A stretch of 64,000 nucleotides of DNA from an uncultured Gammaproteobacteria bacterium. GTDB lineage: Bacteria > Patescibacteriota > Patescibacteriia > XYB2-FULL-38-15. The stretch spans positions 741,595-805,594 of the forward strand of contig OZ246416.1 of assembly GCA_965231095.1 (NCBI GenBank), read 5' to 3'. Positions 26,187 through 36,381 of the stretch are shown here, piece by piece; position 1 is the first letter of the stretch, and the number at the start of each line of letters is the position of its first letter. Made by a program: the position numbers and the translations under genes. The notes beneath the pieces are model-generated. The model searched no databases, was not told the origin of the DNA, and worked only from the letters and a program-made list of their open reading frames with translations.

Positions 26187-26316
26187 ATACGCAAAAAATT
26201 CCCCAAGATTCCTCCTCACTAGGGAGGAGCGGGGCATGTTTGTAAAGAAACAGAAATCTTTCCGTTCTTATTGTAAACGTATAGTAACACGAAAAATTTT
26301 GTTTGTCAACAGCGAC

Positions 26317-26345
26317 TTGACAAATTAGATTTTGTGGCTTAAAAT
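26317..26345 (+). promoter_or_regulatory. sigma70-like promoter, TTGACA-17-TAAAAT, with ttgtcaa/ttgacaa inverted repeat over -35
   Basis: gtttgtcaacagcgacTTGACAaattagattttgtggctTAAAAT. Confidence 0.5.
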
Positions 26346-26379
26346 ATAAAATCACGGATAATAAGGGGAGGAAAGGAGG

Positions 26380-27156
26380 ATGGCCGTGAGTGAGGAAAAT
26401 GGAAAAGAAAAGGGGTCCGACTCGGAAGAGCAGTCGCCTTCGGGCGAAGAGACGTTGAACGGAGCGACTGGGCGCTATGACCTGCCCGGCGAAGGTTCAG
26501 AAGGCGAGCTTCTCGCGAGGAAGGTTAGGGAGGCCTCGATCAAGAAGTTCGAGGTCGGGGAGCACCTCTTCCACGCGGGACAGCCGGCTACTTGCTTCTG
26601 GATGATCAGGTCGGGTAGGGTCGCTCAGTACAAGGGCGAAACCCGAATCAGTGAAATGGGCCCGAATCGTTTTCTCGGGATGAGGACCTTCATGCTCGGC
26701 GGGAAGTTTGAGACGACAGCTCAGGTCATAGAGCCGAGCAAGATCATTGAGCTCGGCCAGGCATTCCTCGAGGATTTTCTCAAGTTGCCGACCGCGGTAC
26801 TGGCATTTCTTAAGGAACAGGAGCTGGAGCTCTTCCGTCTCACAGAGGCCGGCCGACGGTGCGACATCTTCCTTGTTGCTGCTCGAGAGGAGAACACTCG
26901 ACTCAAAGAGCAGCTGAAGCGGGGAGTGAAAGCCACTGCGGGGAATGGCGCTGTTGGCGAATTGACTCTGCAAGAAGTGAAAGCTAAGGTCAATGCAGCG
27001 TCAAAGGCTCTGGATGATCTGGCTAAGAGTGGATCCGTCCCCTGGAAAGTTTTGCAGAAGGAGGAAAGCTTCCTGCTGCTTTACCTTGCCATCAAGGATG
27101 CGGCGGAGAAGCTTGGGGGAATTGACCTTTCCAGCCGTGCCAGTCGTCACGAGTAG
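26380..27156 (+). CDS. GC-rich stand-alone cyclic-nucleotide-binding (CAP effector domain) protein, no HTH
   Basis: cNMP-binding fold signature FEVGEHLFHAGQPATCFWMIRSGRV...GPNRFLGMRTFMLGG. Acidic N-terminus and coiled-coil C-terminus. SD GGAAAGGAGG. Confidence 0.6.
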   Translation: MAVSEENGKEKGSDSEEQSPSGEETLNGATGRYDLPGEGSEGELLARKVREASIKKFEVGEHLFHAGQPATCFWMIRSGRVAQYKGETRISEMGPNRFLGMRTFMLGGKFETTAQVIEPSKIIELGQAFLEDFLKLPTAVLAFLKEQELELFRLTEAGRRCDIFLVAAREENTRLKEQLKRGVKATAGNGAVGELTLQEVKAKVNAASKALDDLAKSGSVPWKVLQKEESFLLLYLAIKDAAEKLGGIDLSSRASRHE

Positions 27157-27172
27157 GAGGATCTCGCCGGTT

Positions 27173-27207
27173 GTGTGAAAACGCAGCCGGCTTTTTTTAT
27201 TTTGCAA
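27173..27207 (+). terminator. intrinsic terminator
   Basis: gccggttgtgtgaaaacgcagccggc plus TTTTTTTATTTT. Confidence 0.5.
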
Positions 27208-27214
27208 AAACGCA

Positions 27215-27256
27215 GAAATTTTTCATAAAAAAATCCCACACCAAGTTGTGATGTGG
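27215..27256 (-). terminator. intrinsic terminator for the convergent gene
   Basis: cccacatcacaacttggtgtggg hairpin followed (minus strand) by TTTTTTTAT. Confidence 0.45.
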
Positions 27257-27298
27257 GTTGCCGAGATTTTTGGTCTCGGCAAAGAGGAGGACGTCCGG

Positions 27299-28057
27299 TC
27301 ACGGCTCGGGCGGAGGGCAGCCGGTTATCGGACACTTGGCTGCGGTCCACTCGCCGAGGTCATCGCCGGTTGATTCGCTGACGACTCGGCCGACGACGTG
27401 TTCGTGATCCGCGAACTCGCCGGTGTAGCGGTAGTCGCCGGAAGTGAATTCAATTTGCCGGCCGTTGATTTCCGGCTCAAAAGAAGCGGCGAGGAGTTTT
27501 CGTCCGTTTTGGGAAACGTGGAGTTCGAACGCGAAGGGGAAAGTCGCCCCTTGAATTATCCAGTTTCCTTCGGCATTTATCACCGCTCGGATGGTGCGCG
27601 GAGCGCTGCAGACTTCGGGGACGCACGGCGCGCATCCGCTTCCGCCGAGGTAGTTTCTGCAGTCGTTTGTGGCGCAAACTCGGATTGTTGTTTCCGGTTC
27701 GCCCTCGCCGCCGGAATCCAAAATGTCAACCAGAGTGGAAATGATGGCCGAAGCGTCGCGGTAGGTTTCGGGGTCAGCGTCAATAGTCGCAAGATGGACA
27801 AGTTCCGAATCAACAATTTGCCACTCCACTCTCTTGAACGTGTCCATGCCCCGCCCGTTGATGACGCGGGCGAGAAGCTTGTAGTCGTCGGTGTTAGTTT
27901 CATCTCCGACCGGAACAGCCGACGCGCCATCTTCACTGCTGCCCGAAACTGCCACGGCTGTCGCGATATAGAATTCTCCGGGACAGAGTTCCATGTAGGT
28001 TTCCCGGCAGCCGAAGAAAACCGCGGAAAGAACCACGAACGTAATTTTTGTCTTCAT
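27299..28057 (-). CDS. GC-rich Cys-rich secreted lipoprotein, unknown function
   Basis: Signal peptide MKTKITFVVLSAVFFGC. Cys cluster CATNDCRNYLGGSGCAPCVPEVC. SD AAAGGAGGAAG. Confidence 0.55.
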   Translation of the reverse strand: MKTKITFVVLSAVFFGCRETYMELCPGEFYIATAVAVSGSSEDGASAVPVGDETNTDDYKLLARVINGRGMDTFKRVEWQIVDSELVHLATIDADPETYRDASAIISTLVDILDSGGEGEPETTIRVCATNDCRNYLGGSGCAPCVPEVCSAPRTIRAVINAEGNWIIQGATFPFAFELHVSQNGRKLLAASFEPEINGRQIEFTSGDYRYTGEFADHEHVVGRVVSESTGDDLGEWTAAKCPITGCPPPEP

Positions 28058-28128
28058 GAGCTTCCTCCTTTGCTCATTTTTATTTTAACAAAATTGTAAT
28101 AAAATTAAAATATTTATGATAATAAAAA

Positions 28129-28180
28129 AACGGAAGGCCTGCGCGACGTCTGTGACGCCCTGCAAACCTTCCGGTTGGTC
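28129..28180 (-). terminator. intrinsic terminator immediately upstream of 27299-28057 gene (attenuator-like)
   Basis: Minus strand: cggaaggtttgcagggcgtcacagacgtcgcgcaggccttccg plus TTTTTTTATTAT. Confidence 0.45.
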
Positions 28181-28840
28181 TCTTGGGAGTTATCCTTTGT
28201 TTTCGGATCTCACCCGTGAGACCGTGGTCGAGCGACTGTGCCCAACCTGTTCGGGAATTTAATCCCTACTTTTGTGCCCGTTTTGCCCGTCGGGCGGCGG
28301 GGCGCGATTTTTTAAACCGGAATGACTGGACACTTTTGCCAGCCCGCGGTCTTAACGAGGTAATCGCTACTTTGCGCGGCAGTCGCTGCTTTGCGCAAGG
28401 AGCGCCGTACTTGCGACCTCGTCGCGCTACCCCGACTGGTAAATTCCGCTTGGGGCGCATTCCATTTTGTCCCCAAACTCTGGTTTCCCGTCCACCAGGG
28501 ATCAGACAATTTCATTGCTGTTGCCGCGCCGTCTGCCGGGGCGCTTTAGTTCAGCTTGAGCCGCAACGCCCAGCTCTGCCAGGCTCGCATCACACTCCCT
28601 TTCCATGCCAGATTTACTGGAGAAGGCGAAGAGGTGGAGTCGCCAATTTACCAAAAGACGACGACCCCGATCGTTGACCCGCGGTTGCAGGCCAGCCAAG
28701 TCAATGGGCAGACCAATTTGTGTTTGCCGCGCCAGTCTGCCGTGGCGCTTTACTAATTCATTCCCGTGCCCTATTCCTCCTTCCACAAAGAAAAATAATT
28801 ATTTATTCAGCTTTATGGAAAGAGGCATTTGCGCAAAGAA
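28181..28840 (-). ncRNA. candidate large GC-rich structured RNA or leader (about 650 nt)
   Basis: Bounded by a minus-strand TTGACA-17-TATTAT promoter (28875-28847) and the terminator at 28180-28129. No convincing ORF. Two roughly 50-nt internal direct repeats (28516-28560 and 28722-28760). Confidence 0.25.
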
Positions 28841-28846
28841 TTTTTA

Positions 28847-28875
28847 ATAATATCATGGCCTTTATTTTTTGTCAA
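28847..28875 (-). promoter_or_regulatory. sigma70-like promoter on minus strand, TTGACA-17-TATTAT
   Basis: Minus strand reads TTGACAaaaaataaaggccatgaTATTAT. Confidence 0.4.
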
Positions 28876-29174
28876 GAGTTTCTATAAAACAAAAAAGGCC
28901 GCTTAGCCCCTCTTGTTAATTCTCCTAAAATTAGCAACAGCAACAAGAACATCCTTTTAATCTTTTGGTGTGTTTGCGTAATTCTTTGCCCTTTTTAGTA
29001 TTTTTTAAAGCCTGCTTTGTTCTGGCTTTCGCCGCGCTGTTTTGTCCCATATGTTTTGGATTAGTTATTTAATAAATTTATTTTGCCATATTTTTAGCGA
29101 GTGGTCAACTTCATTGATTTTTAATGATAAATATTGTATGATTAAATACGCATTAAGTCCTAACTTTAAAAGTT

Positions 29175-36120: not shown

Positions 36121-36381
36121 TCTTCTATTATATTAATACTCATATTTTTAAATTATACCACTAATTATAATTTATAAACACAAAGCTCCCCGTCAGCTAG
36201 CAACCTTTCGGCCGCCCATACCCCTTTCGGGATATGACCCATCCCTGAGTCACTGAACGAGGAGCTCAATGTCAGGGATGGGTTTTGGAACCATGCCTCG
36301 CGGAGGGAGCGAGGTTTAGGCTTTTTTGTTGTATTTATATTTTAGCAAGAAAAGCTGAGTAATGGAAATGATGATTTAATC

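Follow-up and report, generated by a model that had tools for sequence, protein, structure and literature searches.

A 64-kb window of contig OZ246416.1 (the whole stretch analysed here, from an uncultured bacterium of the Patescibacteria) carries on its minus strand a predicted structured non-coding RNA (ncRNA) gene of about 717 nucleotides (nt), located directly upstream of a lipoprotein gene that is itself convergent with a gene coding for a cNMP_binding-domain (cyclic nucleotide monophosphate-binding; cNMP-like) protein. The RNA is more likely a separate gene with its own predicted promoter and terminator than the leader of the lipoprotein gene, and comparison with its homologues suggests that it represents a real, previously unclassified structured ncRNA family with a narrow distribution and without a relative in Rfam 15. 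An initial annotation of the region had described the same stretch as a GC-rich, riboswitch-like or attenuator-like leader; the features that it described in the sequence are all present, but its reading of the stretch as a leader is not supported.

Transcription is predicted to run from position 28840 to 28124, starting from a consensus sigma-70-type promoter (Table 1) that has 11 of 12 consensus matches and a TG extension, and the promoter scan in which it was found covered 3.3 kb and gave 11 promoter-like sites against 2.3 expected. The transcript would end at a strong intrinsic terminator, the hairpin of which (28176-28128, with 23-nt arms) is followed by a T-run ending at 28124 and lies 56 nt upstream of the lipoprotein Shine-Dalgarno (SD) sequence, GGAGG (28068-28064). 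The RNA is 54.7% GC in a window of 43.4% GC. The promoter, the GC-rich non-coding stretch of some 700 nt, and the hairpin and T-run shortly before the SD are all as initially annotated. The minus strand has a minimum free energy (MFE) fold with a z score of -6.8 relative to shuffles, compared with -3.2 for the plus strand, and a motif of ~45 nt is duplicated within the RNA as a direct repeat with a spacing of 204 nt.

Homologues were collected from upstream of lipoprotein orthologues in fetched contigs and by scanning genome and metagenome collections for the duplicated motif. The gap upstream of the lipoprotein gene holds an RNA homologue at loci L008, L010, L011/L013, L253, and L254, and the motif scan gave 237 matches, which blastn sorted into 7 loci that are true homologues, all with the same synteny and one of them in a metagenome-assembled genome labelled Patescibacteria group bacterium, and about 230 chance matches in GC-rich genomes. 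The family has 13 sequences (the window copy and twelve metagenomic homologues) from about 10 lineages, all belonging to one Patescibacteria clade and all at one locus. A TTGACA -35 box is present in all 13, with a -10 box 17 to 18 nt away, and all 13 end in a GC-rich hairpin followed by 6 to 8 U residues, with hairpin sequences that differ among lineages. The lengths group into short forms (377 to 397 nt), a single 448-nt intermediate, and long forms (667 to 782 nt), which have an additional, optional 3' domain of ~330 nt.

The pairing in these RNAs is supported by covariation. An alignment of the 5' core of all 13 sequences, scored for P1, both stems of pseudoknot A, P3, and P4, has standard pairs in 96.6% of 651 cells, and 16 of the 51 pairs are changed on both sides, a level of covariation reached by none of 500 shuffles; when the 3' partners are slid by 1 to 3 columns, pairing falls to 46 to 56%. 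An 11-sequence alignment that adds P6 and stem 1 of pseudoknot B behaves similarly (pairing in 96.7% of cells, changes on both sides at 15 pairs, 0/500 shuffles as high, and slid controls at 42 to 57%). G-U pairs account for 72 of 668 cells, and the same helices read on the antisense strand pair in only 85.9% of cells compared with 96.7%; because of this asymmetry, together with the promoter and the terminator, the minus strand is taken to be the functional one.

The RNA is predicted to fold into the long hairpin P1, two paralogous H-type pseudoknots (A and B) with A-rich third loops, and the conserved hairpins P3 and P4. P1 contributes 20 pairs, of which 9 are changed on both sides, with 94.6% of cells paired in the 13 sequences, and it is also present in the MFE fold. 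Stem 1 of pseudoknot A is invariant, and stem 2 has one pair that occurs as U-A, C-G, or U-G and another that occurs as G-C, G-U, or A-U. P4 has 8 pairs, two of them compensatory (UA/CG and CG/UA exchanges in either direction), with 99% of cells paired, and the family form of P3 has three covarying pairs. P6 (88.9% paired, one compensatory pair) is missing from L076, L229, L253, and L254; both P5 and P6 are variable, and a P5 conserved across the long forms could not be defined. Pseudoknot B, with 93.8% of cells paired and one covarying pair (A-U/G-C/G-U), is a faint echo of pseudoknot A, recovered as the second-best match in the window to a covariance model (R1) spanning pseudoknot A to P4, and its fold gains support from this paralogy. 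With R1, the other homologues score 118 to 160 bits and the window copy 82.6 bits. The window copy is somewhat derived, with another hairpin in place of P3 and a shorter P3-P4 joiner; its closest relative, L254, retains the canonical P3.

Some further pairings were considered and set aside. RNAalifold proposed a long-range pairing of the GCGCC of pseudoknot A with the GGCGC of pseudoknot B, which may also form but was given less weight because both of these stems are invariant and it is the local stem-2 pairs that covary. Partners were sought for the variable J1 segment, for AUGCG/AUGUA, and for the conserved GCUCAAGG, through which the P3 and P6 loops might kiss, but the resulting pairings are inconsistent across lineages. 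Separately, in both P1 and the P5 region (28591-28635, minus strand) an SD-like purine strand is paired with a pyrimidine strand resembling the 16S anti-SD tail; the purine strands are GGAAGGAGG, GGGAG (in the window), and GAGGUGG (in most homologues), the pyrimidine strands are CCUCUUUCC and CACCUCU, and in principle the strands of P1 and the P5 region could swap partners.

Rfam 15 (4227 families) gave no relevant match at an E value of ≤10 in the RNA region, in the 16 kb around it, in the whole window, or at four homologous loci, and this includes the region 28130-28880 that the initial annotation had put forward for such a search. The families covered include OLE, ROOL, GOLLD, HEARO, raiA, RNase P, tmRNA, 6S, SRP, riboswitches, and group I/II introns, and the scattered low-scoring snoRNA, miRNA, and rli60 matches at this threshold are in no case common to the homologues. 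ARAGORN identifies no tmRNA in the window, permuted forms included, and no description of such an RNA was found in the literature on structured and large ncRNAs of the Patescibacteria or candidate phyla radiation (CPR).

The strongest of the alternatives, although an improbable one, is that the RNA is a very long cis-acting 5' leader, either riboswitch-like or protein-controlled, with a terminator that attenuates transcription of the lipoprotein gene. Its appeal is positional, as in 13/13 sequences the RNA immediately precedes a co-oriented lipoprotein gene, with the terminator 60 to 230 nt ahead of the start codon, and its pseudoknots are like ligand-binding aptamer folds in general shape. 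An RNA that ends in an intrinsic terminator upstream of a gene also recalls T-boxes and attenuators, but this one is much longer, has its own promoter and terminator in every homologue, and is followed by what appears to be a separate promoter for the downstream gene. A conserved TTTGNTAARAT (extended -10 form TGnTAARAT) is located between the RNA terminator and the lipoprotein SD, at a distance of ~25 to 35 nt from the ATG at 13 of the 15 loci shown, the exceptions being L008, which has a diverged form, and L010, which is not comparable at its annotated start; at L251 a TTGACA promoter is also present downstream of the RNA terminator. The conservation of this element points to a lipoprotein gene promoter independent of the RNA. 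The RNA and the gene are also separable in both directions. The RNA is absent from four lineages (five fetched loci: L004, L005, L006 with its near-duplicate L007, and L009), in which R1 finds nothing and which all retain both the lipoprotein gene and TGnTAARAT, whereas at L229 (3346-4419) the RNA is kept, with an internal deletion of its 3' domain, next to a lipoprotein gene reduced by deletion to a C-terminal ...KCPPTGC remnant. It is because of these three features (the RNA's own promoter and terminator, the persistence of TGnTAARAT at RNA-less loci, and an RNA without an intact gene at L229) that the leader reading is not supported. Moreover, short and long forms differ by ~330 nt immediately before the terminator, unlike a conserved expression platform, the terminator stems are 10 to 20 bp with 6 to 8 U, and no riboswitch or aptamer family in Rfam matches. 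Inspection of the alignments by eye, with no systematic search, showed no conserved antiterminator or other upstream sequence complementary to the 5' arm of the terminator.

At four of the RNA-less loci (L004, L005, L006, and L009) the slot between the same flanks is occupied by a conserved open reading frame (ORF) of 72 to 93 amino acids (aa), which is oriented opposite to the lipoprotein gene, has its own TTGACA promoter and terminator, and codes for a small protein matching no Pfam, NCBIfam, or PADLOC family. These ORFs were considered as homologues of the RNA and rejected, as R1 finds nothing there. On a rough neighbor-joining tree of the lipoproteins, RNA-type loci are found on all major branches, with the ORF-type loci (L004; L005 with L009; L006) interspersed between them. 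This distribution makes it probable that the RNA was there first and was replaced on more than one occasion, and it suggests repeated cassette exchange at the slot. A second alternative, somewhat less probable than the leader, takes this further and regards the RNA and the small-protein gene as interchangeable, self-contained cassettes in a recombination-prone slot, such that the RNA serves the cassette (for example in addiction, exclusion, or mobility) and not the host. The interleaving, the self-sufficiency of each cassette in promoter and terminator, and the 55 to 57% GC content of the RNA gene and the two protein genes, compared with 43% for the window, are all in keeping with this. However, the flanks of the slot contain no integrase, transposase, repeats, or target duplications, R1 identifies no other copy of the RNA within the window, and motif scans of viral contigs gave no homologue, with just one chance match in a GC-rich phage; the tree is also a rough one of a single protein, and the small ORF has no known family.

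The least credible alternative, which is already largely refuted, is a degraded or frameshifted protein gene or a small-peptide mRNA, for although the SD-like GGAGG of P1 is followed 13 nt downstream by a start codon in 13/13 homologues (AUG or GUG in 12, CUG in L008) and the ensuing frame is open for 13 to 14 codons in 8 of the first 11 sequences, that frame closes after 2 to 3 codons in the window, L011, and L013, and the variation is compensatory in helices without three-periodicity. Stop-free frames are present on both strands, as expected at high GC, but none is conserved; the alignments have many gaps of 1, 2, or 5 nt, and translated similarities shift frame even between near-identical relatives, which speaks against the case, raised in the initial annotation, of a leader that is coding after frameshift correction. 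Public gene calls place a 94-aa ORF with a GTG start on the RNA (28502-28786 on the minus strand of the window; 7535-7819 in L001), and this ORF, which is without conservation in the homologues, is most likely a mis-annotation.

The reading that we prefer is of an RNA that would act in trans through its folded shape, and not by control of the neighboring gene. Such a mode of action fits the size of the RNA, its strong promoter and stable terminator hairpin, the pseudoknots, the GNRA-like P6 loop, the modular periphery, and its dispensability. A protein-binding scaffold or a component of a ribonucleoprotein would be the leading candidates for its role, with a ribozyme or a self-assembling RNA less likely. 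More broadly, and with somewhat less than even confidence, we propose that it may define a new class of large (0.4- to 0.8-kb), doubly pseudoknotted, CPR-specific RNA that works through its three-dimensional fold and stands alongside OLE, ROOL, and GOLLD. If so, sister lineages that carry a small-protein gene in the slot instead could have a protein providing a function interchangeable with that of the RNA.

Like OLE, ROOL, GOLLD, and the raiA motif, the RNA is several hundred nucleotides long and GC rich relative to its genome, has covarying helices and pseudoknots, and is provided with a separate promoter and terminator; it shares with them a lack of coding capacity and a biochemical function that is not deducible from sequence. 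It differs from them in giving no covariance-model match at an E value of ≤10, in being confined to 13 sequences from one clade and one locus, in its modular length of 380 to 780 nt, and in having a protein gene in its place in close relatives. The short form is also similar in size to tmRNA (350 to 400 nt), which likewise has several H-type pseudoknots, and some members have a short frame after an SD-like element; but there is no tRNA-like acceptor/T-arm domain and no ARAGORN or Rfam tmRNA match, and, unlike tmRNA, this RNA is evidently not essential, since it is absent from close relatives.

Several observations weigh against the proposed trans-acting family. In L253 and L254 the central pair of stem 2 of pseudoknot A, and no other pair of that stem, is mismatched, P3 is divergent in the window copy, and pseudoknot B has only one covarying pair, with 52 of 500 shuffles reaching its score. 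The 5' end, the termination efficiency, and the abundance of the RNA are all predictions from consensus signals, and only ~10 independent lineages contribute to the alignments. Finally, the RNA always adjoins the lipoprotein gene on the same strand, which fits cis-regulation by read-through as well as it fits vertical inheritance.

Large structured bacterial RNAs without an assigned function are rare. Patescibacteria have tiny genomes that can carry little dispensable DNA, and an RNA of 400 to 800 nt with a strong promoter is therefore likely to be important to its host. Orphan structured ncRNAs are nonetheless a familiar category, and the narrow distribution of this one limits its reach. OLE, ROOL, GOLLD, and raiA have revealed unexpected architectures or physiology on study (PMC12286853, PMC11109978). 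The short form, at ~380 nt, is tractable for chemical probing or cryo-electron microscopy despite the uncultivated hosts. There is also a caution for annotation, in that gene callers put an ORF on this RNA and that what looks like a long, GC-rich "leader" and its terminator may itself be a separate gene.

Table 1. Features of the RNA locus and its neighbors (window positions, except where a homologous locus is named)
Feature	Position	Strand	Basis or sequence
cNMP_binding-domain protein, 258 aa; acidic N-terminus, degenerate phosphate-binding cassette, helical C-terminus, no helix-turn-helix (HTH)	26380..27156	+	Profiles
Back-to-back intrinsic terminators of the convergent genes	27166..27257	Both	Terminator scan
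Lipoprotein, 252 aa; two immunoglobulin (Ig)-like beta-sandwich domains, conserved cysteines	27299..28057	-	Homologues, AlphaFold2 (AF2) model
TGTTAAAAT, extended -10-like element, putative lipoprotein gene promoter	28082..28090	-	Conservation
Structured ncRNA gene, long form, ~717 nt; 5' end predicted from the promoter	28124..28840	-	Homologues, covariation
RNA intrinsic terminator, long GC-rich hairpin then 7 U	28124..28174	-	Hairpin search, homologues
3' extension, long forms only; first 75 nt (P7, P8) nearly invariant among aligned long forms	28175..28502	-	Alignment
Pseudoknot B, internal paralogue of pseudoknot A	28503..28545	-	Direct repeat, second-best R1 match
P6 hairpin, GNRA-like loop, optional in the family	28568..28584	-	11-sequence alignment
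P4 hairpin, GGGGUCGU...GCGACUCC	28636..28668	-	Covariation
P3 position, divergent hairpin UUGAC...GUCAA in the window; family form GCGGGAUUSG...CSAAU-G-CCCGC	28674..28705	-	Alignment
Pseudoknot A; stem 1 GCGCC/GGCGC, stem 2 GGCAGAC/GUCUGCC, A-rich loop 3	28707..28749	-	Covariation
P1, long 5' hairpin; 3' strand is the invariant SD-like GGAAGGAGG	28774..28826	-	Covariation, MFE fold
RNA gene promoter, TTGACA, 17 nt, TATTAT, TG extension	28847..28875	-	Scan, homologues
Upstream neighbor, conserved 39-aa basic ORF, Cys-rich tail, own terminator; context, outside the RNA	28931..29050	-	MGQNSAAKARTKQALKNTKKGKELRKHTKRLKGCSCCCC
Small-protein ORFs in the RNA slot	L004 5629-5856; L005 4354-4617; L006 5601-5819; L009 3576-3857	Opposite to lipoprotein	

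The two protein-coding genes downstream of the RNA are largely as initially annotated. The first codes for a predicted bacterial lipoprotein with homologues in 14 clusters and no Pfam family; as read from the alignment, its N-terminus has the form of a lipobox signal peptide, with MKTK, a hydrophobic stretch, and [LF]GC, in which Cys16 is invariant and Gly15 is present in at least 90% of members. The Cys cluster noted initially is conserved (C127, C132, C144, and C149), and at least four cysteines besides that of the signal peptide do not vary among the homologues. The AF2 model has a predicted local distance difference test (pLDDT) score of 82.8, with weak matches (template modeling scores of about 0.33) to the S-layer domains SbsC and Sap, and by this model the gene product is a surface protein with Ig-like domains in tandem.

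The convergent gene codes for a stand-alone CAP-type domain without an HTH, as proposed. The protein matches PF00027 (cNMP_binding) over aa 55 to 135 with an E value of 2.2e-12 (47.2 bits, against a gathering cut-off of 27.5), no HTH family, including HTH_Crp_2 of CRP/FNR proteins, is matched even at an E value of ≤1, and all nine clusters of the family, each restricted to this clade, have a precomputed PF00027 assignment. Among profiles of solved structures in the PDB, its best relatives are the cyclic-nucleotide-binding domains of PKG, followed by the sensor domain of DNR (E value, 5e-6). The canonical phosphate-binding cassette is G-E-x-A-L...P-R-[ST]-A, and in CAP, PKA, and PKG its Glu contacts the ribose 2'-OH and its Arg contacts the cyclic phosphate. 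Aligned to PKG, the cassette of the window protein reads G-M-R-T-F...F-E-T-T-A against G-E-R-A-L...P-R-T-A, with Met101 opposite the Glu, Glu111 opposite the Pro, and Thr112 opposite the Arg, and all three of these residues are invariant in the family. Because both contact residues are replaced, canonical cNMP binding is unlikely, and the cyclic-nucleotide signalling role initially suggested is doubtful.

The sequence is more consistent with a sensor barrel of the CRP/FNR type that has lost its cNMP-contacting residues. DNR-type sensors do not use cNMP, and the protein resembles DNR (PDB 2z69, 3dkw) in that a long helix follows a cNMP_binding-type beta barrel, although the DNR profile matches cover only residues 41 to 143. 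It differs in having an acidic N-terminal tail and, in a low-confidence model, a helical C-terminal region, where DNR has a C-terminal winged-helix DNA-binding domain. That structure model is poor (pLDDT 46.8), resolving only the long helix and the helical C-terminal region, and is too poor for a fold search. An effector of the Pycsar or CBASS type was considered and rejected: the PADLOC PycC model gives a 21-bit match to the cyclic-nucleotide-binding domain only, the neighbors in the window are uvrB, the lipoprotein gene, Band_7, and hemerythrin, and there is no adjacent cyclase.

The cNMP-like gene adjoins the lipoprotein gene at every locus at which the DNA extends past the latter, so the co-occurrence anticipated in the initial annotation is strict, and both proteins are ordinary genes of one Patescibacteria clade. 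However, because this co-occurrence is confined to one clade with a fixed synteny that includes uvrB, the two need share no function beyond inherited gene order. The convergent arrangement with back-to-back terminators is as first described, with hairpins at 27166-27191 (plus strand) and 27257-27235 (minus strand), each followed by a T-run. In place of the ligand-regulated secreted-factor module that had been envisaged, the region is quite probably organized as three separate transcription units, for the RNA, the lipoprotein, and the cNMP-like protein, that do not form a regulated module.

On contigs that are long enough, the shared gene order is Band_7, a basic ORF of 38 to 42 aa, the gap, the lipoprotein gene, the convergent cNMP-like gene, uvrB, and uvrA. 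The GC-rich block extends from 26380 to 28840 (the cNMP-like gene is 56.4% GC and the lipoprotein gene 57.3%), and the flanking uvrB and Band_7 genes are close to the window average. Divergent consensus promoters are predicted in the intergenic region between uvrB and the cNMP-like gene, TTGACA-17-TAAAAT on the plus strand (26317-26345) and TTGACA-17-TACTAT on the minus strand (26309-26281). In the small basic ORF upstream of the RNA, which is 39 aa in the window, the basic N-terminal segment of 32 residues is nearly invariant across 12 loci, in contrast to the variable Cys-rich tail; the ORF matches no Pfam, NCBIfam, or PADLOC family and is found at loci both with and without the RNA. A second orphan RNA motif is present elsewhere in the window, where a LOOT RNA (Rfam RF03000) is identified at 36199-36322 on the minus strand with a score of 85.5 bits, against a gathering score of 46.4.

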